Part shown: positions 1-10,808 of the stretch, piece after piece | Numbering within the stretch: position 1 is the first letter of the stretch | Layout: the number at the start of each line of letters is the position of its first letter | Virus genome (UHGV): UHGV-0129264 | DNA length: 10,808 nt | DNA from: a virus | Direction: 5' to 3' (one strand) | Position numbers and translations under genes: made by a program | Notes under the pieces: generated by a model | What the model was told of the DNA's origin: nothing | The model's database searches: none | What the model saw: only the letters and a program-made list of their open reading frames with translations

Positions 1-38
1 AGCACCTCAAAAACACCATCATACACTAAATCAGTAAG

Positions 39-230
39 TTGGCAGCATCACCCAAGGCCGATGTTGTGGAACCTGGTTCGAAATATGCAAGTGCGCGCTA
101 CTCCAGGGGGAATGGGGCATTACCAAAAGACTGCCGAATAATCTTCTTCCATGGCAAACCGCGACCGCGTGAAGTGTCAGAGGATTGGCTTCCTCTCATT
201 AGCGCGTTTTTTGAGCAAGAATCAGGATAA
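39..230 (+). CDS. Hypothetical 63-aa ORF with TTG start; may instead be a frameshifted 3' remnant of a gene entering from the left edge
   Basis: ORF track; in-frame stop at 27-29 bounds it upstream; no internal ATG; weak RBS. A different frame is open from the window edge to a TAA at 139-141. Confidence 0.25.
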   Translation: MAASPKADVVEPGSKYASARYSRGNGALPKDCRIIFFHGKPRPREVSEDWLPLISAFFEQESG

Positions 231-231
231 T

Positions 232-248
232 ATTGCTCTAATAATTCA
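232..248 (+). promoter_or_regulatory. C1 repressor operator-like site ATTGCTCTAATAATTCA
   Basis: 14/17 match to the P1 C1 operator consensus ATTGCTCTAATAAATTT as I recall it; lies directly after the TAA at 228-230 and overlaps a candidate -35. Confidence 0.6.
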
Positions 249-273
249 ATATTTTTAAAACGTGATGTACACT
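245..273 (+). promoter_or_regulatory. Candidate sigma70 promoter (-35 TTCAAT 245-250, 17-bp spacer, -10 TACACT 268-273) flanked by two operator-like sites
   Basis: Hexamers and spacing read from sequence; operator-like sites overlap the -35 and the predicted start region. Confidence 0.35.
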
Positions 274-280
274 CATCGCG

Positions 281-297
281 TTTTTTATTAGAGCAAT
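281..297 (-). promoter_or_regulatory. Second C1 operator-like site in inverted orientation (minus strand reads ATTGCTCTAATAAAAAA)
   Basis: 14/17 to consensus; forms a 13-bp perfect inverted repeat with 232-244, centres about 49 bp apart. Confidence 0.55.
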
Positions 298-311
298 CCA
301 TAAGGTGCACT

Positions 312-530
312 ATGTGGCCATTCCGACGGAAATATCACTACTGGCTGATCACCTTTGTTACGCCGACCGGCGGTATCAGGCATGTCATCACCAGGTATCG
401 CAACAAGAGACTCACCTTAGCCAGAATTTTACAGGCTGCCATAGGTGAGGGACTGGATACAAATTGCGTAGTCCTTCCACCTTCATACTTAGGAAAAATG
501 ACCGAAGCACAAGCTAATACGGAACTTTGA
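312..530 (+). CDS. Hypothetical 72-aa protein, first gene of a C1-operator-controlled operon
   Basis: ATG at 312 preceded by AAGGTG (302-307); TGA at 528-530 followed one base later by the next ATG (532), suggesting translational coupling. Confidence 0.45.
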   Translation: MWPFRRKYHYWLITFVTPTGGIRHVITRYRNKRLTLARILQAAIGEGLDTNCVVLPPSYLGKMTEAQANTEL

Positions 531-531
531 A

Positions 532-1794
532 ATGAGCACTTCAGCACAAAACCAATCAATCGAAAATGTATCTATCCCTGATGTCCTGAATGCCGGTATC
601 CCGGCCATTATCCAGAACATCCGGGCCGCGCAACGCCGCGTTAGTTGTGATGACCTCACAGCACGTTTTTTTGATAATGCGGTTCAGTCAGCGGAGATGC
701 TTCACGCACAGCTTATTGATGTTTATAACGCAGAAGCTGATAGCCATAACTCCCAGGTAGATGCAGCTGAAAATATGCAGTTGGATCTCGGTCTGAAGGG
801 TAAAGAAATTGAAGAGCTTCAGCTGCAAATTGAACATTTGAAACGCCAGCAACAGGACGCGATCGACGATGCGACGCATGACGCCAACCAGCGTGCTGAT
901 AATGCCGAACGTATAAGCATTGAGCTGGAAACAAAACTCAATGAAATGACCGCGATGGTTGAACTGCGGAACTCACAGATTTCAACGCTAAAATCTCAAT
1001 ATAAAGAGATCTGGAAACTTGATCCTTTTAACCTTGAGAAACGCTATAACAAAGCTAAAAGCGAGCGACAGGAACTGCGTAAGCAGGTCGCCGACCTTAA
1101 CCAACAGCTCAAAAAAACTATTAAAGATGCAAGCGAGGCGCGCGTGGCATTTGCTAATAAAAAAGCAGAGGTTACCGCGCTGGTTAATGAGAATGCCAAA
1201 TTTGCGACGCTCAAGAAGGAAATGTATGGCATTACTGAGCGCCGTTTCCCTGCAAGCAAACTTCATCCGACGTTAGGGCAAATCTCCTTCTTCCCGCGCC
1301 TCCTGGCTTATGGGATCTCATCGCCTAAAGAGTTCAATAACGAGCGTCCTTATATCGTTTCTAAGCTGGACTTTGCTTATCAGTTCTGCTGCGACATGGG
1401 CTATGCCATTGATATCCGAATCAACGAATGGTTGATGCCAAACTTCCAGCCGTTGGCAATTTTCCGCGAGTTTCAGCCGGAAGGTTGGGTAGAGTTCTTC
1501 CATGAATTGATCTGTAAAGAGATGGAAAGCCGCCGCCCGGAACTGGTCCGTCGTGTCGAGTGGGCGCAAGAGGTTATGTTAGCAGATGCAGAGCTGCCGT
1601 TCGAACCGGAATTCATTGATGATCTGGCAACTAAAGGGCTGCATACCCTGTTTGATGTGGTTACCCGCCGTCATGAGCAGTTGGTTGTCGAATTGGGTTT
1701 AGAGGAAACTGCGGCAAGAAGACTTCTCGATGTTTGCTATGCACGTAGCGATGCATGGGAAAAAGAGAACGGCGGCACTATTTACGTTCGCTGA
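532..1794 (+). CDS. Hypothetical 420-aa protein: N-terminal ~240 aa coiled-coil-like (heptad-rich, K/E/Q-rich), C-terminal globular domain of unknown function
   Basis: Long ORF with a clean frame; followed by a strong intrinsic terminator. No recognisable catalytic motif (no P-loop, no KxDG). Confidence 0.8.
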   Translation: MSTSAQNQSIENVSIPDVLNAGIPAIIQNIRAAQRRVSCDDLTARFFDNAVQSAEMLHAQLIDVYNAEADSHNSQVDAAENMQLDLGLKGKEIEELQLQIEHLKRQQQDAIDDATHDANQRADNAERISIELETKLNEMTAMVELRNSQISTLKSQYKEIWKLDPFNLEKRYNKAKSERQELRKQVADLNQQLKKTIKDASEARVAFANKKAEVTALVNENAKFATLKKEMYGITERRFPASKLHPTLGQISFFPRLLAYGISSPKEFNNERPYIVSKLDFAYQFCCDMGYAIDIRINEWLMPNFQPLAIFREFQPEGWVEFFHELICKEMESRRPELVRRVEWAQEVMLADAELPFEPEFIDDLATKGLHTLFDVVTRRHEQLVVELGLEETAARRLLDVCYARSDAWEKENGGTIYVR

Positions 1795-1815
1795 TAGTTA
1801 CAGTGTCACTTTTAA

Positions 1816-1847
1816 TGCTGGTGGAGTGCTCCCACCAGCATTTTTTT
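1816..1847 (+). terminator. Rho-independent terminator (9-bp stem TGCTGGTGG/CCACCAGCA, 7-nt loop, T7 tail)
   Basis: Perfect GC-rich hairpin at 1816-1840 followed by TTTTTTT at 1841-1847, 22 bp after the stop at 1794. The next gene follows, so termination is probably partial. Confidence 0.7.
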
Positions 1848-1866
1848 CGTCCAATGAGGAGGGCAT

Positions 1867-2373
1867 TTGAGTATTTTCAATAAACACGCACACCAGGAAC
1901 GTCCGTACATCGTCATAGTAGATATTGATGGGACGATATCAGAGGCAACGGAAGACAGGCTGCATTTACTTCCACCACCTGGCAAAGGTGCATTAACAGA
2001 GCACTGGAACGAGTTTAACCTTGCCTGTGACACTGATGCTCCCATCACTCCAGTTATTGATATGGTGCGCCAGTTGTCCGGCATTTACACCCTCTGGTTT
2101 GTAACCGGGCGCTGTGAGATAGCCAGGGATAAAACACGAGCCTGGTTGCGTAAGCACGTAACAAATGGGGCTGAGCCTTTGCTATCTATGCGTCCTGCCA
2201 CCGATGACAGAAATGACGGTCCAGCAAAGATTGATCTCCTTAAGAAAATTGGTCTAAGTAAAATCGCGTTCGCGCTGGAAGATAAGATTGAAGTGGCGCG
2301 TGTTTTCAGGAGGCACGGCGTGCTTACGTTAATGGTCAGAGAGTATGAAAACGCGCTTCTACATCAACAATAA
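1867..2373 (+). CDS. HAD-superfamily phosphatase-like protein (168 aa) with N-terminal DxDGT motif (IVIVDIDGTI); resembles small phage polynucleotide 3'-phosphatase / acid-phosphatase-like HAD proteins
   Basis: TTG start at 1867 preceded by GAGGAGGG (1856-1863); DxDG[TS] is the HAD motif I nucleophile signature. I recall a P1 gene named pap in this neighbourhood, but the symbol is not verified. Confidence 0.7.
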   Translation: MSIFNKHAHQERPYIVIVDIDGTISEATEDRLHLLPPPGKGALTEHWNEFNLACDTDAPITPVIDMVRQLSGIYTLWFVTGRCEIARDKTRAWLRKHVTNGAEPLLSMRPATDDRNDGPAKIDLLKKIGLSKIAFALEDKIEVARVFRRHGVLTLMVREYENALLHQQ

Positions 2374-2389
2374 TTGCTCTAATAAATAT
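2373..2389 (+). promoter_or_regulatory. C1 operator-like site ATTGCTCTAATAAATAT (16/17 to consensus), overlapping the stop codon of the HAD gene
   Basis: Near-perfect match; followed by TTGATT (2389-2394) and an AT-rich stretch resembling the spacer at 245-260, suggesting a duplicated operator-promoter cassette. Confidence 0.65.
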
Positions 2390-2470
2390 TGATTTTAAAA
2401 CAGAGAAAGTGAAAATAAAAACATGCCGCAAGGCGCGGCATGTATCCAATCAATCACAGGAGCTGAAAAT

Positions 2471-2557
2471 ATGAACACGGCATTCAGAATCATTATGGCC
2501 GCGATCTATTTCTGGCTGTTCTCTATCACTTTTGGCGGCATCGTCGCACATGGGTAA
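2471..2557 (+). CDS. 28-aa hydrophobic peptide (MNTAFRIIMAAIYFWLFSITFGGIVAHG), leader or small membrane peptide
   Basis: ATG at 2471 with AGGAG (2458-2462) 8 nt upstream; its TAA (2555-2557) sits inside the RBS of the next gene. Below the ORF-track size cutoff; found by manual translation. Confidence 0.4.
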   Translation: MNTAFRIIMAAIYFWLFSITFGGIVAHG

Positions 2558-2566
2558 GGGGGATGC

Positions 2567-3745
2567 ATGAAAGGCGAAGTGAAAGAGCGCGGCATGATTT
2601 TTAACGATGAGATGGTCCGGGCAATTCTTGGCGGGAATAAAACACAGACTCGCAGGATTGTTGAAGAAAAATTCTATGGATGGGCAGTGGCCGCAGAGTT
2701 GCTTGCCAAGCATTGTCCATATGGTCAACCGGGCGATCGTATTTGGGTTCGCGAAACCTACCGGGTACATGGCAAAGCGACGGACGTCGCAACGCTGGTT
2801 TATCGCGCAAGCGTGCGTAACTCCTGGACAGAACAAACGCACCGGGTTCCGGTCGAGGTTTGTAATAAACCAGTATCAGAAAAGTGGACGCCATCAATTC
2901 ACATGCCGCGCTGGGCATCGCGCATTCTTCTGGAAATTACCAACGTGCGCGTTGAGCGGTTGAACGATATCAGCGAATGCGATGCAAGGGCTGAGGGCGC
3001 ACCAACAGAATCGACCCTCATTGGCGATAAGCATTACCCAAGTTTCCGTAGCCTATGGAAATCAATTTATGGCGAAGATAGTTGGAACGCTAATCCTTGG
3101 GTGTGGGTAATACAGGCTGATGTCGCGCAGGCAATTGAAAAACTCAAACGGAAATTAGTGGAATGCAATCGCTATAACTACTGCGCAGATGCAGTTAAGG
3201 GCGTTGAGTATGCCTGCCACGCTGCCATGCTTCAGGGTAGCCAACCTGTAAGCCAAAGTAAGACATACAGGTTGGATTTTGGGCAATGGCTGGAACAGCA
3301 ACGCGGGAAAATCGATGTGGACTGTGGTTGTGTGTCCACTGAAACATTCATGCACTGGCTGCGGGTAGCTTACGAGGCTGGCAACTATCCGGATATTCCG
3401 GATAGTTCGGTGCCAGCGCCAGGAAAGGGCGTCACCGGTGAACGTATCCGCATTAAGCCGCATGTTTATCGCGAACTGGTTAACCGTCTCCACGATACAG
3501 CGATCAAGTGTGCTGGCACCCAGCAATTACGAGAAAGAATTAGCCGTGTTTTGGGCGACGTTATTACGCCATATCATCATAAACAAGCCGAGAAAAGCGG
3601 TCTGGAAAGGTGTCATCTTGAGGCAGCATTAAAGATTAAGCCGGGGCATACGCTTGGCATTATTGATGCACTGTTGGTTCATAAGATGGCCAGGGCTTTA
3701 TTGTCGTTGGTGGACGCTGGTGATACAAGCGAGGGTGAAGTATGA
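2567..3745 (+). CDS. 392-aa protein whose N-terminal ~190 aa resembles the ASCH/PUA-like domain common in prophage proteins; C-terminal half unknown
   Basis: ATG at 2567 after AAGGGGGA; N-terminal signature MIFNDEMVRAILGGNKTQTRR...GDRIWVRETY recalled as typical of ASCH-domain proteins (memory, not searched). Confidence 0.8.
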   Translation: MKGEVKERGMIFNDEMVRAILGGNKTQTRRIVEEKFYGWAVAAELLAKHCPYGQPGDRIWVRETYRVHGKATDVATLVYRASVRNSWTEQTHRVPVEVCNKPVSEKWTPSIHMPRWASRILLEITNVRVERLNDISECDARAEGAPTESTLIGDKHYPSFRSLWKSIYGEDSWNANPWVWVIQADVAQAIEKLKRKLVECNRYNYCADAVKGVEYACHAAMLQGSQPVSQSKTYRLDFGQWLEQQRGKIDVDCGCVSTETFMHWLRVAYEAGNYPDIPDSSVPAPGKGVTGERIRIKPHVYRELVNRLHDTAIKCAGTQQLRERISRVLGDVITPYHHKQAEKSGLERCHLEAALKIKPGHTLGIIDALLVHKMARALLSLVDAGDTSEGEV

Positions 3746-3843
3746 GAGTTGCAGATCACATCAAACACCTTGAAAGAATTATCGAAAACGGTGAACTCTT
3801 AAGAGATCAGATGAGACGCACGGCAGAGCCAGGGAGGCGATAA
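3742..3843 (+). CDS. 33-aa ORF overlapping the upstream stop (ATGA); possibly the N-terminal part of a frameshifted gene continuing in the 3873-4103 frame
   Basis: ATG 3742 overlaps TGA 3743-3745; the downstream frame is already open from 3795, so the two frames overlap by ~50 nt. Confidence 0.3.
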   Translation: MRVADHIKHLERIIENGELLRDQMRRTAEPGRR

Positions 3844-3872
3844 TCCGCAGTCAGGCTGGTAAATTAAAGCAA

Positions 3873-4103
3873 TTGTCAGAGATTAACACGCTATACAAGA
3901 ACAGACGTAACCGGGCGGTGATGCGGCTTCAGAAAGCACGTAATGAAATTAAATTGGTGGAGGCAAAACTGAAAAAACAGATCCAGCGTTACGATCAGCA
4001 AGATGCTTTTTATGCCGCCATCAAGGCGGCTGCTAATGAAATAGGCATCTGGAAGTTGCTGGTGGAGAAAGCAAAGACGAAGTTAAATGCCAACGAAAGC
4101 TGA
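3873..4103 (+). CDS. 76-aa K/E-rich helical small protein, TTG start (alternative ATG at 3921)
   Basis: ORF track; weak RBS; hairpin ATGTGC-N6-GCACAT at 4109-4126 just after the stop. Confidence 0.4.
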   Translation: MSEINTLYKNRRNRAVMRLQKARNEIKLVEAKLKKQIQRYDQQDAFYAAIKAAANEIGIWKLLVEKAKTKLNANES

Positions 4104-4159
4104 ACTACATGTGCCCACCAGCACATACAGAAAATGATTGTTTCCACATCAAAGAGATT

Positions 4160-4182
4160 TTAATGTTTCACTGAAACATTAA
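4160..4182 (-). terminator. Perfect 23-bp palindrome TTAATGTTTCA-C-TGAAACATTAA, likely terminator for the minus-strand small gene (or a protein-binding site)
   Basis: Overlaps the stop codon (4179-4181) of the 45-aa ORF; on the minus strand the hairpin is followed by TTAAAATCTCTTT. No U-tract on the plus strand. Confidence 0.45.
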
Positions 4183-4316
4183 GTAAGCCAGTGCATAATT
4201 CCATTTTTTACTGACCTTAAAAGCAAAATCAAAACGATGATGAGGATAATAGCCAGAATCTGGCTAATAATAGGCGCATCTAAAAATGCACTCAGGAACT
4301 GAAAAAAAGCGTTCAT
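4179..4316 (-). CDS. 45-aa hydrophobic single-helix peptide (MNAFFQFLSAFLDAPIISQILAIILIIVLILLLRSVKNGIMHWLT), small membrane protein
   Basis: Manual minus-strand translation; ATG at 4316-4314 preceded by AAGGAA (complement of 4324-4329) at 7-8 nt; stop embedded in palindromic terminator; not in the ORF track (<60 aa). Confidence 0.55.
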   Translation of the reverse strand: MNAFFQFLSAFLDAPIISQILAIILIIVLILLLRSVKNGIMHWLT

Positions 4317-5178
4317 TCAGGTGGTTCCTTGTCAAATGTAAAGGTGCACTTGCTCACGTTGACGTAGAAACCCAACCCCTATATAGTTGGATTCGGTGAA
4401 TGAAAGTCGTTAACGTGAGCTTACGGCACATGTTTTCGGAAAAACATCAGGGAACGGCTAATTCCTTGATGCGGGTGGGGTCTGTAATGCAGACCCTATC
4501 TATTAACGTCATGATTGCATCTCAAATTTTCTCCTTATCTTCAATTAATCTACATTCATTTCATCTGTTAGCCACCACAATATGTAGAAAATGGCCCTCT
4601 TGCAAGTGCATAACTTTGTGGATAACTCAGGAAGGAAAAAGTGGCTTTCGCGCACCTTCGGTCAGACAAGGTGTCCGGGAAAGTCAACGCAAAGAAAAAA
4701 ATTGTTAAAAATAACGTTTGTTGGAATTGTATATTTTTATCCCCTTCAATGGTTAGCATTCTATTAACATCTTTTTTTAGAGACAGAAAAACATATCGTA
4801 ACAACATATATACAGTATTAAGAGGCGAGTATTATCCTGCGGTGGGAATTCTGGGCGCTGTTAGATTCGACTTTCTCAGCGGGATTACATCGTCAACTTG
4901 CGACGTTGCCGTATGACTTTCGTGTAATAGGTGACAATGATGCGGCTAGTGAGTTACTTGTGAAGTTTTTCGGAAAAGGTTTTGTGGCCTCGGATCTTGA
5001 TGAGCTACAGCAACATGAAGTGTCTAATTTGATTTTTAGCCATAGCCAATAAGCCTCCCTCCTCCATCAAGGCCACAATTTGTGACCTTAAACAATTTGT
5101 TTTCTGCTTTTTCTTATTTGAGGAAATAACGTTGTTGACAGCTAATAGGCTCGTTGTTGTTATACATACCTGTATAGA

Positions 5179-5535
5179 TTATGACCGTAAATTATTAGCG
5201 GATTTTAAGCCATATTCACCGTTGTAGAAATTACTCATGTTCCATTCATTAGGAAGTTCTTTTCTGTCCAATGTATAGTGGCGCACGATATAACGATCTT
5301 CATCTTCTTCGATGGACAGGCGGACATAGCCAATGTGAATCACCGATACGGGCGGTGTTCGTATTGCATAGATGTCGCGGAGATATACCGGCAGCTCGAC
5401 AAATGCATCAGGTGCATCTGTGATGCTCGTTTTTTCACAGTATTCATATAACGCATCGTTGATATCGTTAAGAGATTCATGATCGTATATTTCCAGGTAA
5501 TTACCGCGATCGCGATGGTACTCGATTTTAGCCAT
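5179..5535 (-). CDS. Hypothetical 118-aa acidic protein, second gene of a minus-strand pair
   Basis: ATG at 5535-5533 abuts the stop of the upstream gene (minus strand reads TGAATG); AGGGGA 6 nt upstream, inside the upstream gene's 3' end. Confidence 0.7.
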   Translation of the reverse strand: MAKIEYHRDRGNYLEIYDHESLNDINDALYEYCEKTSITDAPDAFVELPVYLRDIYAIRTPPVSVIHIGYVRLSIEEDEDRYIVRHYTLDRKELPNEWNMSNFYNGEYGLKSANNLRS

Positions 5536-5943
5536 TCAAAATCCCCTGTTATCGTTTTGCATTTCTCTAATCCGGTTCAGAACTACTTCGTGCTGGACTT
5601 GGATAGCGGCTTTTTCGTTTTCAAGCCGGGCAATAGACATCTCTAATTCTTTGCTGTACCAGGCGAGCTGGGCCAGGTTCATCCGGTTGTGGTCGAGAGT
5701 TGGAGACACTTCGACGCGATCCCTTTCTTTCTGCTTTAATGAGAAGAGATTCATCTCATCCCTTGAGGAAAATTCAGCAACAATTTCTTGTTGATGATCC
5801 GGTCGCTGCGGCATCCTCGCCAGTATAAATGGCGGTTCTTTTGAAAACATGAATGTCGGTTCAGACCGTGTTTTTACCCAGCTTGCCTGCTGTCTTTCGG
5901 CAAGTTCACAGGCTTCATCATAGTTATCTGCCAAACAAAGCAC
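5536..5943 (-). CDS. Hypothetical 135-aa protein with C-terminal coiled-coil-like segment, first gene of the minus-strand pair; start uncertain
   Basis: GTG start at 5943 without a clear SD; internal ATGs at codons 32 and 44 also lack a well-spaced SD. Confidence 0.6.
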   Translation of the reverse strand: MLCLADNYDEACELAERQQASWVKTRSEPTFMFSKEPPFILARMPQRPDHQQEIVAEFSSRDEMNLFSLKQKERDRVEVSPTLDHNRMNLAQLAWYSKELEMSIARLENEKAAIQVQHEVVLNRIREMQNDNRGF

Positions 5944-6256
5944 GGATGGACGGTCTCACGCCCCACCATTCAGACAATAAACTACAATTTTCCCGTCAGG
6001 TTGTGTAATCCCATATGGATGGTCCCACTAGGCGTCCAGCTGAGCTTTAGAGCGTTTCTCGTTAGGAGTGCAGTCAAAATTTTTGGGCAATACAGGATCG
6101 AGAGGAATGCGATTAGGCATAGCTAATTCCTTATTAACTGATTGGCAACGAGGTTACGCTGATCCCGCGGTGATGAATAGTAGCAAAGCGCACAAAAATC
6201 ATCAGCGGTGGTTGATGTACATAACGCGTTTGCACCAAAGGTGCTTCTTTAATGTA

Positions 6257-6276
6257 TACTGTATAGATAAACAGTA
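6257..6276 (+). promoter_or_regulatory. LexA (SOS) box TACTGTATAGATAAACAGTA overlapping a -10 (TATACT 6255-6260) upstream of the UmuD'-like gene
   Basis: Perfect CTGT-N8-ACAG with AT-rich spacer; the only such site I found in the window; candidate -35 TTGCAC at 6230-6235. Confidence 0.85.
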
Positions 6277-6294
6277 TTTTTGAGGTAAAACGCT

Positions 6295-6684
6295 ATGGGT
6301 TTCCCTTCTCCTGCGGCGGATTATGTTGAAAGCCGAATTTCTCTTGATCAGCAGATAATTAGACATCCATCAGCAACCTACTTCATGCGGGCAGCTGATA
6401 GCCATCACCGTGAGGGAATATTGCAGGGTGCTTTGCTGGTGGTTGATTCTTCGCTTACTCCAGTTGATGGTTCGCTGCTTGTGTGCGCTATGGAGGGTGA
6501 ATATCGCATAAAGAGATACCGAAAGTATCCGCGCCAGCACCTGGAGGATTTAAGCACCGGGAAGAAAGAGGCGTTACCAGTGGATGACGATGGATGCACG
6601 GGGAGTAATGCTGTGTTTGGTGTGATCACTCATGTCATTAATGATGCCCGAAGTGGGGAATTTGATGATTGTCCGGTGATTTAA
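6295..6684 (+). CDS. humD: HumD, UmuD'-like S24 peptidase-fold protein lacking the N-terminal autocleavage segment (begins at the GFPSPAADYVE motif)
   Basis: Strong similarity to E. coli UmuD from the post-cleavage residue onward; Ser and Lys aligned with UmuD catalytic positions; GAGG RBS; LexA box upstream. Confidence 0.9.
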   Translation: MGFPSPAADYVESRISLDQQIIRHPSATYFMRAADSHHREGILQGALLVVDSSLTPVDGSLLVCAMEGEYRIKRYRKYPRQHLEDLSTGKKEALPVDDDGCTGSNAVFGVITHVINDARSGEFDDCPVI

Positions 6685-6726
6685 GCTGCAAAGTGCTGGT
6701 GCTTTATGCCTGTGAAGTTTATAATT

Positions 6727-6747
6727 GTGTACACATAACGAGTACAC
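6727..6747 (+). promoter_or_regulatory. Phd/Doc operator: perfect palindrome GTGTACAC (6727-6734) plus imperfect GAGTACAC (6740-6747), with -10 TATAAT at 6720-6725
   Basis: Two adjacent 8-bp palindromic sites immediately upstream of phd, matching the known autoregulated operator layout. Confidence 0.75.
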
Positions 6748-6756
6748 GAGGTGTTT

Positions 6757-6978
6757 ATGCAATCCATTAACTTCCGTACCGCGCGCGGCAACCTTTCTGA
6801 AGTGCTCAACAATGTTGAAGCCGGGGAAGAGGTTGAAATCACCCGCAGAGGCCGTGAGCCAGCAGTAATTGTCAGCAAGGCTACTTTCGAAGCCTACAAA
6901 AAAGCGGCGCTGGATGCTGAATTTGCATCCCTGTTTGACACCCTGGACTCCACCAACAAGGAACTGGTTAACCGATAA
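6757..6978 (+). CDS. phd: Phd antitoxin (prevent-host-death), 73 aa
   Basis: Sequence [41 protein letters not shown]... matches P1 Phd as I recall it; ATG at 6757 (track start 6751 is an upstream GTG); stop overlaps the doc start (TAATG). Confidence 0.95.
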
Positions 6979-7358
6979 TGAGGCATATATCACCGGAAGA
7001 ACTTATTGCGCTTCATGATGCGAATATAAACCGCTACGGCGGCCTGCCGGGAATGTCAGATCCGGGTAGGGCAGAGGCCATTATCGGGAGAGTTCAGGCC
7101 AGAGTCGCCTACGAAGAGATCACCGACCTTTTCGAAGTCTCCGCCACCTACCTGGTGGCTACAGCGAGAGGGCATATATTCAATGATGCCAATAAGCGTA
7201 CCGCGCTAAACAGTGCGCTGTTATTTCTACGCCGTAACGGGGTGCAGGTATTTGATTCACCTGAACTGGCAGACCTTACCGTAGGGGCTGCGACCGGAGA
7301 GATATCTGTATCTTCTGTCGCCGACACGTTACGTAGATTGTATGGTTCCGCGGAGTAG
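6978..7358 (+). CDS. doc: Doc toxin (death-on-curing, Fic-fold kinase), 126 aa
   Basis: [17 protein letters not shown]...[11 protein letters not shown]... matches P1 Doc as I recall it; translationally coupled to phd. Confidence 0.95.
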
Positions 7359-7362
7359 ATTA

Positions 7363-7542
7363 ATGGCACGTAAATACAACAAATTGTCCCGTGAAGCGTT
7401 AAAGATGCTTCTTGATGGCGTGAGTCGCCGCGAGGTAAAGCAATACCTGGTTGGTAAGCAAATTGGTGCTAGGACCGCTATTGCTGTGTTATGCCGTCAG
7501 GAAATGGTTGTGCTTAAACAGAGAATGCCGGGCAGCAGATAA
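7363..7542 (+). CDS. Small 59-aa basic protein with probable helix-turn-helix (post-doc small gene, possibly pdcA)
   Basis: ATG at 7363 with GGAG (7352-7355) 7 nt upstream, 5 nt after the doc stop; the track's 7342 start lies inside doc and lacks an SD. Confidence 0.5.
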   Translation: MARKYNKLSREALKMLLDGVSRREVKQYLVGKQIGARTAIAVLCRQEMVVLKQRMPGSR

Positions 7543-7569
7543 AGCCCAATCAGTGATGAAAGGTGTGAT

Positions 7570-8613
7570 GTGAAAGCCGTAATTACTCCCTTTGTACAAA
7601 AAGAGCTTGGCGTCGCCACATTCAAAGTGGATCAGGAAGTCAGAAAGCTGGTGGAGGCTGGCCGTAAATTTATTATGGAGCCGGTGCCGCGTGAGTTAAT
7701 CGAGCACATGGACGACGGCCTCGTTGTTTCCGAGCAAACTATGGCAACAAATGAGGCGTTGCAGCCGTTTTTTAACAGCGATGAACTGTTTCGCCGTATT
7801 GGTGGAATTGACGCGCTGGTGGCGTGGTTGCGCAGGAAAGAGGGGCAATGCCAGGCCGCAGATCGTAGCTGGTGTGACAACCATATTGTCCACGCAGAAC
7901 GAGACAATAGCGCGGTGTTGTTGTGCTGGCATCACGATAACCATTACCGGATGCGTGGTTTTAATGAGCTGAAAGAAACGCTGCATAATAATCGCGTTAA
8001 CTGGATACTGGATGTCGCCCGTCAGGAAATGGGGCTTTCAGATGGCCATGATCTAAGTATTCAGGAACTGTGCTGGTGGGCTTTCATGCGCAACATGATG
8101 CACCTGATGCCGGAAGAAGTTTGCCGTATATCAATAAATAAGATGAAAGCCGCAACGCAGGATAGCGGACCTCTGAAAGAGGCGGATATTCGCCCGTATG
8201 ACGATCGCGCTACAGCATATGTTCAGATGATGGAAGAACGCGCCGCGCCGATGCGTGCAAAAGTATGCCCTGTGGATGTTGACTCCGACCCTGGCATGGC
8301 GCATTTCAAAATACCAAAACTGCAATCGCTAAAATTACCTGAGTACATGGACTTTGTTGCTTCCCGTCCATGCTGTGGGTGTGGAGCGGCGGGAGCTGGC
8401 GCTCACATTACGCCTTATATCGTTCGTCATAGTCGATTATGCGCGCATGACATTTACGCAATTCCTCTGTGCCAGTCATGCCAGCGTGATATTGAGCGTG
8501 ACCGCGATAATTGGGAGAAGACGCACGGTAGGCTGGCGATGCATCAACGATTGTTCTTTGATTACGCGCTTGGAGTCGGCGCTATCACAAGTCACTCGTC
8601 GAGCGTTATATAA
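7570..8613 (+). CDS. pdcB: PdcB-like 347-aa protein (post-doc), Cys/His-rich with a possible HNH-like motif ([24 protein letters not shown]) and a C-terminal Cys cluster
   Basis: GTG start at 7570 with AAGGTG SD; position after phd-doc as in P1; motif reading is by eye only. Confidence 0.75.
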
Positions 8614-8614
8614 A

Positions 8615-8656
8615 ATTGCTCTAATGTATTGCTATTTCTTTAATCGAGGGTATTAT
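8615..8656 (+). promoter_or_regulatory. C1 operator-like site ATTGCTCTAATGTATTG (8615-8631) overlapping -35 TTGCTA (8629-8634), 16-bp spacer, -10 TATTAT (8651-8656): C1-repressed promoter for lpa
   Basis: 14/17 to operator consensus; promoter hexamers and spacing read from sequence; consistent with known C1 control of the late-promoter activator gene. Confidence 0.6.
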
Positions 8657-8701
8657 ATTCCACGTTGATTAGTTGACATGGGCTAATCAGTAGGTGACAG
8701 G

Positions 8702-9154
8702 ATGTTACTTAACTGGCAGGGACGCCACTTCATGGAAATAAATCACTCACGAATAACATCGTACGAGATTGCGGATTACATGATCCGCACTAAATCTCTT
8801 CTATCAGCGAAAGAACTCGCAGCAATTCTTGAAAAGGAATACCCGCATCTGGATGTCGATAAGCGCGATGTTTATCTGCGCTTAAAGGCTATCGCTGTGT
8901 CTAAGTATTCGTCTGTTTTGATTGATGACAGTACACGCCCACGTAGATTTCAGATCCACTCTCTGAATCCTGAATTCTTTCGCCGTAGCCGCGCTCCGCG
9001 CCGGTTTGATGAAAAACTCCAGAACGAACTCTATATGACGCAGGACGAAAAGGAACGCCGGGAGCACCAGCCTTGGGTAATGGCGCGTCAACTTTTCAAT
9101 AAGGTGGCCCGTCAGCACCGTCATTACGGTAATGCCACATCCGCACGTATCTGA
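8702..9154 (+). CDS. lpa: Lpa, late promoter activator (gene 10 product)
   Basis: Position between pdcB and pacA with a C1-controlled promoter upstream; AGGTGA SD before ATG 8702; identity rests on synteny (sequence not recalled). Confidence 0.7.
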   Translation: MLLNWQGRHFMEINHSRITSYEIADYMIRTKSLLSAKELAAILEKEYPHLDVDKRDVYLRLKAIAVSKYSSVLIDDSTRPRRFQIHSLNPEFFRRSRAPRRFDEKLQNELYMTQDEKERREHQPWVMARQLFNKVARQHRHYGNATSARI

Positions 9155-9239
9155 TTGATTGCTTGCTCGTTCCGGGCCTTTTGACATGTGACTTTCGTTA
9201 CCCTCGCGTCAAAAAGAGTTTTTACGAAAGGAAGCATAA

Positions 9240-10025
9240 GTGACCTGGGACGATCACAAGAAGAATTTTGCTCGCCTGGCGCGAGATGGTGGTTACACCA
9301 TCGCACAGTATGCCGCCGAGTTTAATCTTAACCCTAATACCGCACGTCGTTATCTCCGTGCCTTCAAAGAAGACACCAGGACTGCGGACAGCCGCAAGCC
9401 AAATAAGCCAGTCAGGAAGCCACTAAAAAGCATGATCATTGATCACTCTAATGATCAACATGCAGGTGATCATATTGCGGCTGAAATAGCGGAAAAACAG
9501 AGAGTTAATGCCGTTATCAGTGCCGCAGTCGAGAATGCGAAGCGCCAAAATAAGCGCATAAATGATCGTTCAGATGATCATGACGTGATCACCCGCGCCC
9601 ACCGGACCTTACGTGATCGCCTGGAACGCGACACCCTGGATGATGATGGTGAACGCTTTGAATTCGAAGCTGGCGATTACCTGATAGATAACGTTGAAGC
9701 GCGGAAGGCCGCGCGCGCTATGTTGCGTCGGTCCGGGGCCGATGTTCTGGAAACCACTCTTCTTGAAAAGTCTCTTTCTCATCTCCTTATGCTGGAGAAC
9801 GCCAGGGATACGTGTATTCGCCTGGTGCAGGAAATGCGCGATCAGCAAAAAGACGATGATGAAGGTACTCCGCCTGAATACCGTATCGCGAGCATGCTAA
9901 ACAGCTGTTCCGCGCAGATAAGCAGCCTGATCAACACCATTTACAGCATCCGGAATAACTATCGAAAAGAAAGCCGGGAGGCGGAAAAGGGGTCCGCTTG
10001 GAAAACGGAAAATATCCTACGCTAA
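9240..10025 (+). pseudogene. pacA: pacA (pacase/terminase small subunit) truncated by transposon insertion: about 249 native codons then 12 codons read from the transposon IR before a stop
   Basis: GTG start 9240 with AGGAAG SD; N-terminus [10 protein letters not shown] matches P1 PacA as I recall; the reading frame runs into the 38-bp IR at 9989 and ends at TAA 10023-10025; native PacA is about 400 aa. Confidence 0.85.
9433..9591 (+). repeat. P1 pac site: four TGATCA hexamers (9433-9438, 9440-9445, 9452-9457, 9467-9472) and three TGATCR hexamers (9563-9568, 9575-9580, 9586-9591) flanking the cleavage region
   Basis: The 4+3 arrangement of Dam-site-containing hexamers inside the 5' part of pacA matches the described pac site architecture. 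Confidence 0.9.
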
Positions 10026-10026
10026 G
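9989..10026. repeat. 38-bp terminal inverted repeat of a Tn3-family transposon (GGGGTCCGCTTGGAAAACGGAAAATATCCTACGCTAAG), Tn21/Tn501-subgroup-like
   Basis: GGGG terminus, internal GAAAACGGAAAAT and terminal ACGCTAAG match Tn21-type IRs from memory; the tnpA stop lies inside the IR, as is typical. Confidence 0.85.
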
Positions 10027-10808
10027 CCTGTTTTTTGTACAGGCTGCTGTCTACTGAGCGTAACGAACGGTATTTCCCCTGTCCCAGCTTGAGGTTTGTT
10101 CGCCAGACGTAATCTCCGCTCAGGTTGATGTGTTCCCATCCCAGAGGGGACAGATGAGAAATCAGCTGGTCATTGATTAGGATCCCTTTTCGCTTCAGAG
10201 AATCTATGGCTCTTTCTATATATACCGTATTCCAGAGTGAGATCGCCGCAGTCAGCAAGGTGAGCCCACTTGCCCGATAGCTCTGGTATTCCAGTCCCCG
10301 ATCTCTGATTTCACCCAGCCGGTGCATAAAGACTGCGCGCGCAAGGGCATTCCGCGCCTCACCTTTATTCAGCCCTGCCTGTACGCGTCGACGCAGGGAA
10401 GGATCCCGGAACCAGTCCAGCATAAACAATGACCTTTCGATGCGACCAATTTCCCTTAGCGCTTTTGCCAGACCATTTTGTTTCGGATAGCTGGCCAGCT
10501 TTTTCATCATCAGTGATGCTGTTACCGTTCCCTGTTTTATAGAGTTCGCCAGACGTAGCACCTCACTCCAGTGGGTTTCAATGTCCTTTAGATTCAGGCT
10601 GGTTGTGGAAATAATTGACTGAAGCCCCGGATACAACTCGGATTTTCCATGAATAAACAATCTCTTGTCATGAAGATCCCGGATCCTTGGCGCAAAAGCG
10701 AATCCGAGCAGATGCATCAACGCGAAAACATGATCAGTGAAACCTGCGGTGTCGGTGTAATGCTCTGTAATCTCCAGCTCGCTTTCGTGATACAGCAAGC
10801 CGTCAAGT
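10022..10808 (-). CDS. tnpA: Tn3-family transposase TnpA, C-terminal ~260 aa (partial; N-terminus beyond window end)
   Basis: C-terminal region ([21 protein letters not shown]...[13 protein letters not shown]) is typical of Tn3-family DDE transposases; ORF is open to the window edge. Confidence 0.9.

Follow-up and report, generated by a model that had tools for sequence, protein, structure and literature searches.

A predicted C1-controlled early transcription unit of a P1-family phage-plasmid, in an apparently decayed form

Results

Layout of the unit

The 10,808-nucleotide (nt) stretch of DNA analysed here, virus genome UHGV-0129264 (hereafter the window), is on sequence grounds a segment of a P1-family (Punavirus) phage-plasmid. 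Over positions 1–9989 it shares ~100% identity with numerous plasmids from E. coli, Salmonella and Shigella, and from one of these, L120, the window differs by four substitutions and one missing T only. Its features were mapped by alignment to the annotated P1 record NC_005856, and the corresponding P7 record is NC_050152. We focus on positions 2373–4103, which an earlier note, made from the letters of the sequence, had described as a second operator-led module with a hydrophobic leader peptide, an ASCH-like protein and a possibly frameshifted small gene. The following features, including the open reading frames (ORFs) and their sizes in amino acids (aa), make up this unit.

2373–2389, plus strand: predicted C1 repressor operator Op88 (OpmgT), ATTGCTCTAATAAATAT; consensus match and P1 synteny
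2374–2401, plus strand: predicted sigma-70 promoter P2pmgT, with −35 TTGCTC at 2374–2379 (within the operator) and −10 TAAAAC at 2396–2401; transferred P1 annotation
2389–2416, plus strand: alternative predicted promoter P1pmgT, with −35 TTGATT at 2389–2394 and −10 GAAAAT at 2411–2416; P1 annotation, a prediction only
2412–2443, minus strand: conserved, terminator-like hairpin with its stem at 2421–2443; terminator scan and fold
2458–2462, plus strand: Shine-Dalgarno (SD) sequence AGGAG of the small ORF, with an 8-nt gap to the ATG; unchanged in almost every copy
2471–2557, plus strand: 28-codon ORF, MNTAFRIIMAAIYFWLFSITFGGIVAHG, candidate single-pass small membrane peptide; ORF list
2567–3112, plus strand: N-terminal module, aa 1–182 of the 392-aa ORF; corresponds to aa 1–182 of P7 Upf86.8 and is related to the N-terminal part of P1 PmgT
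3107–3112, plus strand: putative deletion junction GTAATA, a 6-nt microhomology at which the BLAST pieces abut with a 9-nt overlap
3113–3745, plus strand: C-terminal 210 aa of the 392-aa ORF; corresponds to aa 223–432 of P7 Upf89.5, 99.4% identical to P7
3742–4103, plus strand: apparent pmgV (P7 upf90.8) pseudogene; P1/P7 alignment

Operator and promoters

The 17-bp asymmetric site ATTGCTCTAATAAATAT agrees with the C1 consensus ATTGCTCTAATAAATTT in all but one of its 17 positions, and its first bases overlap the stop codon of pap. Sites with at most three mismatches to the consensus occur four times in the window (at 232, at 281 on the minus strand, at 2373 and at 8615), where 0.07 would be expected by chance. 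By synteny and near-identity of sequence, the site corresponds to the P1 protein_bind feature 'OpmgT; former Op88', for which C1 binding and repression are stated in the GenBank annotation of P1. Alignment to P1 and P7 further showed that the orthologous position is held with respect to the overlap with the pap stop, the location upstream of a pmgT-type gene and the −35 element inside the operator. As predicted from its sequence, the window site is P1's C1 operator Op88. The operator proposed in the earlier note is therefore present, and the operator-led module corresponds to the annotated Op88/OpmgT of P1 with its predicted promoters P1pmgT and P2pmgT. Across 70 haplotypes, 9 of the 17 operator positions and 18 of the 31 promoter-spacer positions vary, mostly as singletons. 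A literature search for P1 transcript maps or Ribo-seq returned nothing relevant.

The P2pmgT spacer measures 16 nt in the window and 17 nt in every other copy, because TTTT replaces TTTTT at 2393–2396. This haplotype is unique to the window among ~90 aligned copies and is not found in the near-identical plasmid L120; the missing T, seen in the window alone, may stem from a read error. A start from the alternative promoter P1pmgT would land within the 5' arm of the hairpin.

The resemblance between this cassette and the one at 232–261 (Op86a), which had been noted as a duplication, does extend past the operator core: the two form family D1, in which a stretch of 28 nt is 79% identical. Within P1, the cassettes agree at 26 of 30 positions in register, with 13 of 17 matching positions after the operator core (p ~ 0.001 given local composition), and the similarity stops directly after the −10 TAAAAC. 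P1 annotates PpmgR and P2pmgT alike, each with −35 TTGCTC inside the operator, a 17-nt spacer and −10 TAAAAC, and 'duplicated cassette' is a fair label for this known operator-promoter design.

A chimeric 392-aa ORF

The DNA of the 392-aa ORF corresponds to positions 476–1230 of the P7 locus joined directly to positions 4001–5025. Relative to P7, ~2.77 kb are lost, from the last part of upf86.8 through four complete genes to codon 222 of upf89.5. We conclude from this alignment that the ORF is an in-frame chimera, evidently made by deletion. The C-terminal ~200 aa, which the earlier note had treated as an uncharacterised part of one gene, are instead the C-terminus of P7 upf89.5, apparently fused by that deletion. 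PHROGs splits the protein into modules, with phrog_14306, phrog_924 and phrog_21459 covering the C-terminal part, which consists of an Ea22-like central segment (shared with lambdoid phages) and a PmgU-like module at aa 270–391. The 392-aa protein as such had no match in sequence and profile searches of Pfam, NCBIfam, PADLOC and the PDB, and a full-length AlphaFold2 model, built on a mosaic alignment, was unusable (pLDDT 45). The fusion is found on 313 contigs. Two of the four substitutions that separate the window from the L120 lineage (at 755, 2681, 3634 and 7801) fall inside this ORF and change residues, R39W and N356K relative to the lineage.

Adjoining the junction, a ~130-nt segment (3106–3237, VIQADVAQAIEKLK...CHAAMLQG) also occurs, at 90–98% identity, in many lambdoid and Stx-converting phages, within genes that are ea22-like or hypothetical, and looks like a recombination linker joining variable N-terminal and conserved C-terminal modules. 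A related event may have shaped P1 itself. In NC_005856 (L001, 4269–5338), the last ~70 aa of PmgT (309 aa) are out-of-frame upf89.5-like sequence, and PmgU (111 aa), whose gene overlaps pmgT, is the in-frame C-terminal remnant of an upf89.5-like gene. This arrangement suggests that P1 pmgT and pmgU are remnants of an independent, out-of-frame deletion in a like operon.

The N-terminal module belongs to a very large family (43,227 cluster representatives) of stand-alone proteins of ~190–230 aa, with the conserved motifs KTQTRR, PGDRLWVRE, PSIHMPRWASR and NPWVWV. Since stand-alone proteins of this size are the norm for the family, the fusion is the derived state. The window protein has no match to the Pfam ASCH model (PF04266) at E ≤ 0.1, so that the ASCH-like character proposed earlier is not detectable by Pfam in the protein itself; it is supported remotely, through the family, for the N-terminal half. 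Weak Pfam ASCH matches occur in 28 of 61 diverse family members (best E = 2.4e-4), and NCBI names one homologue of the module an ASCH domain-containing protein. Together, these sequence comparisons support an ASCH-like character of the N-terminal module as a remote relationship. Judging by fold analogy, binding of a nucleic acid or of a modified nucleotide is plausible for the ASCH-like part; the further statement that ASCH domains are RNA-binding folds does not carry over, as the fold alone does not show RNA binding for this module.

An inherited pmgV pseudogene

Downstream, pmgV is split into ORFs of 33 aa (3742–3843) and 76 aa (3873–4103), and its first codon shares bases with the stop codon of the 392-aa ORF (ATGA). 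The region measures 362 nt in the window and 363 nt (120 aa) in P1 pmgV and P7 upf90.8. The difference is a 1-nt deletion (AA to A) at ~3826–3828, where the window reads GCAG-AGCC and P1 and P7 read GCAGAAGCC; with one A restored, the protein is 97% identical to P1 PmgV. The same deletion is present in the independently assembled plasmids L005 and L120, and gene calls on 270 contigs include precisely this 76-aa fragment, a number close to that for the 392-aa fusion. A read error as its cause was rejected, the deletion being common to independent assemblies and to these contigs. PmgV corresponds to phrog_4403, of unknown function according to PHROGs, and gave no informative match in Pfam, NCBIfam, PADLOC or PDB sequence and profile searches.

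The earlier note had suggested that the two small ORFs are one gene needing a −1 shift. They are indeed the two halves of pmgV, and a −1 shift arithmetically restores its frame; the split allele is also common, as the spread of the 76-aa product attests. For 3742–4103 to be one functional gene expressed by programmed −1 ribosomal frameshifting is nevertheless so improbable that we give it next to no weight. pmgV is a single uninterrupted ORF in P1, P7 and 14 of 15 other fetched loci, and is split only in the window's own lineage; this comparison, which the note had proposed as a check, gave one ORF in P1 and P7, and the alternative outcome of two consistently separate genes was not seen. Within the 49-nt shift window (3795–3843) there is neither a slippery heptamer of the form X XXY YYZ nor a homopolymer run of four or more. 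The abundance of the allele follows one plasmid lineage that is ~100% identical over 10 kb and bears other inactivating lesions. Finally, pmgV is non-essential in P1, as are pmgT and pmgU, both by CRISPR interference (PMC10695390) and, according to the account given there, by single-gene knockouts (PMC9024508, via PMC10695390). By comparison of these sequences, pmgV here is an inherited pseudogene, the missing base being a 1-nt deletion and not a programmed shift.

A conserved leader with a predicted minus-strand terminator

The leader, taken as 2362–2561 from the operator to four bases past the stop of the small ORF, is 93–99.5% identical across 868 PLSDB plasmids and ~19 P1-group phages. Homology typically breaks off 4 nt past that stop, and what follows differs between elements. 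A same-strand pmgT-type gene is found in 66 of 95 copies, and a convergent type I restriction gene, hsdR, in 28 (including L007 and L008); in IncF plasmids, an IS1-truncated remnant of the small ORF lies beside hsdR. In an IMG/VR contig (L057), the small ORF stops at TAG with a PmgU-like module directly after it, and this arrangement is another deletion endpoint at the small-ORF boundary.

The hairpin that the earlier note had placed at 2422–2442 is present, and its stem at 2421–2443 comprises 9–10 GC-rich base pairs. A terminator scan called it an intrinsic terminator on the minus strand only, where TTTTTATTTT (2420–2411) follows the stem; the plus strand has no U-tail and there the hairpin is a 5'-leader stem-loop. 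We gathered 113 copies with an anchor outside the hairpin, inside the ORF. Among these, the core stem is invariant and variation is limited to the terminal pairs and the loop (AAGGC, AAGAC or AAGGGGC), with no compensatory change in the stem. The fold of the whole leader was unremarkable (z = −1.39), and alifold on 41 haplotypes gave no real covariation in the leader or ORF; the lone 'compensatory' pair was rejected as two linked changes within one lineage. An Rfam scan of 2200–4400 found no family, only a sub-threshold GcvB match (E = 0.19) driven by the terminator.

The hairpin most likely acts on the other strand, as an intrinsic terminator for leftward transcripts such as that of a convergent hsdMSR operon. 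In that position it would keep antisense read-through out of the Op88 promoter and the conserved pmgR-pmgS-pap operon. Because hsdMSR reads into the hairpin site in ~30% of relatives, a boundary terminator for leftward cargo transcripts is the simplest reading of this element.

The 28-codon ORF

The small ORF encodes a hydrophobic peptide of 28 aa with one predicted membrane span. Its TAA (2555–2557) abuts GGGGG (2558–2562), ahead of the ATG at 2567, so that the earlier description of a hydrophobic ORF ending in the ribosome-binding site (RBS) of the next gene holds. A longer, 44-aa reading from the ATG at 2423 is the form annotated in databases, where it is called 'membrane protein' in phage SJ46 and is found on at least 1000 contigs. 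The ORF is confined to P1-group phages, with no relatives outside, and is unannotated in the P1 and P7 reference records. The peptide gave no informative match in Pfam, NCBIfam, PADLOC or PDB sequence and profile searches. Compared with pap (2072–2372) across 70 haplotypes, the ORF is ~2.6-fold less diverse and lacks codon-position periodicity.

That the ORF encodes a small membrane protein is plausible but unproven. In support of a peptide, a strong AGGAG stands at ideal spacing from the ATG, and 95 of 97 copies keep the frame intact, with all 28 hsdR-type elements among them. The non-synonymous changes spare the hydrophobic core or stay hydrophobic (A10T, S18F, T20I) and otherwise concentrate in the C-terminal tail (G22D, G23S/D, G28R). 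Other features of the variation are neutral or weigh against a peptide and would fit an incidental ORF without a functional product, in a segment kept as RNA or DNA (as a 5' leader, the target of a leftward transcript or a recombination boundary). Variable sites are spread over codon positions as 5/6/6, compared with 17/11/45 in pap. Nucleotide diversity (π) is 0.018 in the ORF, as against 0.048 in pap and 0.062 in the promoter spacer. The reduction relative to pap is similar at first, second and third codon positions, a pattern suggestive of constraint at the nucleotide level or of a different genealogy. The alleles comprise 8 synonymous and 11 non-synonymous changes, and the ratio of non-synonymous to synonymous rates (dN/dS) of ~0.4 is borderline (p ~ 0.04 before correction for transition bias). 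An open frame of 28 codons is, moreover, not rare by chance, and this one lacks both relatives beyond the P1 group and annotation in P1 and P7. Set against these points are the SD sequence, the near-universal integrity of the frame and the sparing of the hydrophobic core, together with the lack of any covariation-supported RNA structure over the ORF; on balance, we regard an incidental ORF as doubtful while taking it seriously. A classical leader peptide, acting by attenuation or by obligatory translational coupling to the downstream gene, is unlikely. The stop overlaps the SD region of the next gene (TAAGGGGG) with the ATG 10 nt past it, and a pmgT-type gene stands in exactly such an arrangement in the 66 copies mentioned above. 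The 9-nt gap to the next start, however, holds no plus-strand terminator or alternative hairpins, the peptide has no run of a regulatory amino acid, and the persistence of an intact ORF in the 28 hsdR-type elements, with no same-strand gene after it, speaks against a role limited to coupling or attenuation for pmgT. For these reasons, the label 'leader peptide' in the earlier note is not the most fitting one.

The small ORF and the opposite-strand terminator could also be viewed as a type I toxin-antitoxin-like or antisense pair. Here, a leftward RNA starting inside the ORF (from a −10-like CATAAT, 2497 to 2492) and running to the terminator at 2443–2412 would cover the RBS of the ORF, as Sok does for hok/mok. 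A canonical minus-strand intrinsic terminator immediately upstream of the SD, the short and hydrophobic nature of the peptide, conservation independent of codon position (as expected from dual coding and antisense constraint) and the self-standing persistence of the ORF when downstream cargo is swapped would all be in line with such a pair. We consider it highly unlikely all the same: no minus-strand promoter with at least 9 of 12 consensus matches lies within 2444–2600, and CATAAT is accompanied by neither a usable −35 nor a TG extension. The Rfam scan offered no match above threshold, and no similarity to known type I toxins emerged from Pfam, NCBIfam, PHROGs or PADLOC. A further contrast with typical type I toxin mRNAs is that the ORF follows a C1-repressed promoter and its strong SD is exposed, and the terminator is more simply explained as a stop for convergent cargo transcripts. 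Returning to the membrane-protein reading, its boldest extension would make the series of C1 operator/promoter, opposite-strand terminator and 28-codon ORF a self-standing module at the entrance to the hypervariable cargo of all P1-group phage-plasmids, whatever that cargo. The module would encode an uncharacterised, induction-specific membrane peptide (for example in lysis timing, exclusion or a toxin-like role), possibly controlled by an antisense RNA through the terminator. We offer this extension, which is built on sequence patterns, as a speculative and rather improbable idea.

Neighbouring genes and other lesions

The upstream cassette (232–297) contains a 13-nt perfect inverted repeat (I25), and its two operators flank PpmgR, which controls pmgR-pmgS-pap. 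Downstream, alignment with P1 gave the gene order humD, phd, doc, pdcB, lpa, pacA. The flanking features are as follows.

232–248, plus strand: predicted operator Op86a, in the upstream cassette before pmgR; C1 consensus scan and P1 annotation
281–297, minus strand: predicted operator Op86b, in the upstream cassette; C1 consensus scan and P1 annotation
312–530: pmgR; P1 alignment
532–1794: pmgS; P1 alignment
1867–2373: pap; P1 alignment
8615–8631: predicted operator Op94, before lpa; P1 alignment

PmgS has weak PADLOC matches to LmuB (E = 7e-5), a resemblance that most likely reflects coiled-coil or SMC-like sequence and not membership of a defence system. On the minus strand at 4179–4316, convergent to pmgV, lies a very hydrophobic ORF of 45 aa (MNAFFQFLSAFLDAPIISQILAIILIIVLILLLRSVKNGIMHWLT) with no Pfam match and a weak terminator-like site at 4291–4274; it is possibly another small membrane protein.

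Several further lesions were found in the element. Positions 1–52 are IS1 terminal sequence, the same as the IS1A end by the small-ORF remnant in IncF plasmid L004, and in L120 this sequence adjoins an annotated IS1A transposase. A 63-aa ORF (39–230) occupies the position of the 3' end of P1 pmgQ by synteny, the two not having been aligned, and IS1 apparently truncated pmgQ. At the other end of the window (9989–10808), a 38-bp Tn3-family terminal inverted repeat (GGGGTCCGCTTGGAAAACGGAAAATATCCTACGCTAAG) interrupts pacA, cutting it to 261 aa, and the minus strand encodes the 3' part of a Tn3-type transposase (PF01526, E = 2.5e-90). In near-identical plasmids, the pacA sequence continues intact at the Tn3 insertion point. 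On the minus strand at 5536–6120, a homologue of P7 upf94.2 carries two G-to-A nonsense changes (TGG to TAG at ~6029 and TGG to TGA at ~5956) and is otherwise 99% identical to P7, making it another pseudogene.

Discussion

Eight hypervariable regions have been described in P1-like phage-plasmids, and the pmgT–humD block is 'variable region 8' among them (PMC9603915). From the alignments presented here, window 2373–4103 is very probably the early transcription unit that Op88 (OpmgT) controls in a P1-family phage-plasmid, standing at the left edge of this hypervariable accessory region in a decayed form. By extension from P1, C1 bound to the 17-bp operator that contains the −35 would block sigma-70 transcription in a lysogen, and the unit would be transcribed rightward upon induction. 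The transcript would carry, in order, a leader with a stable stem-loop, the 28-codon ORF, the 392-aa chimeric ORF and the broken pmgV. With its strong RBS, the 28-codon ORF probably encodes a small single-pass membrane peptide, and its stop lies 10 nt before the next start, so that translational coupling would be possible. The chimera would have arisen when a P7-type operon lost 2.77 kb by deletion between microhomologies of the sequence GTAATA, so that Upf86.8 became joined in frame with the last 210 aa of Upf89.5, and pmgV would have been inactivated through the inherited single-base deletion. Because the same element has nonsense codons in upf94.2, IS1 in pmgQ and a Tn3-family insertion in pacA, the best reading of both the 392-aa fusion and the pmgV break is that non-essential accessory genes are decaying in a successful plasmid lineage.

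The P1 and P7 reference genomes already carry annotation for the operator, promoters and genes, which are thus known. With genes that are annotated and experimentally non-essential, in a region recognised as a hypervariable cargo site, the locus has little discovery value. What the analysis adds is an account of how this widespread lineage of E. coli, Salmonella and Shigella plasmids would have originated, through a microhomology deletion that gave a chimeric ORF plus a frameshift in pmgV. It also points to P1 'pmgT' and 'pmgU' as possible deletion remnants, which calls for caution in functional inferences drawn from both, and allows PmgT/Upf86.8 to be assigned to a remotely ASCH-like family of more than 43,000 sequence clusters without a Pfam model of its own. 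Lastly, it draws attention to two elements of the Op88 leader, a conserved small ORF and a predicted terminator on the minus strand, that are missing from the P1 reference annotation.

Among the closest known systems is the Op88/PpmgT pmgT-pmgU-pmgV operon of P1 (NC_005856, 84293–85916), which occupies the corresponding syntenic position, with pap on one side and the variable region on the other. Its operator agrees at 16 of 17 positions, the leader is 94–98% and pmgV 96–99% identical, and both share the C1 operator placed over the −35. The window differs in a T-run one base shorter and in an N-terminal module that is the P7/RCS47 variant and not that of P1. Whereas P1 has an out-of-frame pmgT (309 aa, with a frameshifted tail) and pmgU (111 aa), the window has the in-frame 392-aa fusion, and pmgV is intact in P1 but broken in the window. 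Another close system is the 'hea' operon of P7 (NC_050152), with Op(hea), upf86.8, upf87.4, upf87.6, upf88.3, upf89.0, upf89.5 and upf90.8. DNA identity to this operon is 99.2–99.4% on both sides of the junction, and upf90.8 is pmgV; the window lacks the 2.77 kb and has the 1-nt deletion in upf90.8/pmgV.

At the protein level, the N-terminal module is about twice the size of a minimal ASCH domain, as compared with members of the superfamily such as E. coli YqfB, an N4-acetylcytidine amidohydrolase (PDB 9kyf), and the L. crispatus ASCH protein (3s9x). It has long insertions and strongly conserved motifs of its own; the window protein reaches no Pfam threshold, and the proposed likeness to the superfamily is a remote one in sequence. 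The 392-aa protein resembles the mosaic early proteins of the lambdoid Ead/Ea22-like type (PF13935) in the segment 3106–3237 and in having a conserved C-terminal module that is found joined to varying N-terminal domains from protein to protein; PF13935 is matched by 1 of 51 relatives only and not by the window protein. Finally, the small ORF shares with hok/sok-type loci and small phage membrane peptides a short hydrophobic reading frame and an opposite-strand terminator just upstream of the RBS. It differs from hok/sok in that no antisense promoter and no toxin similarity were found and in its C1-repressed sense promoter, features read here from sequence alone.

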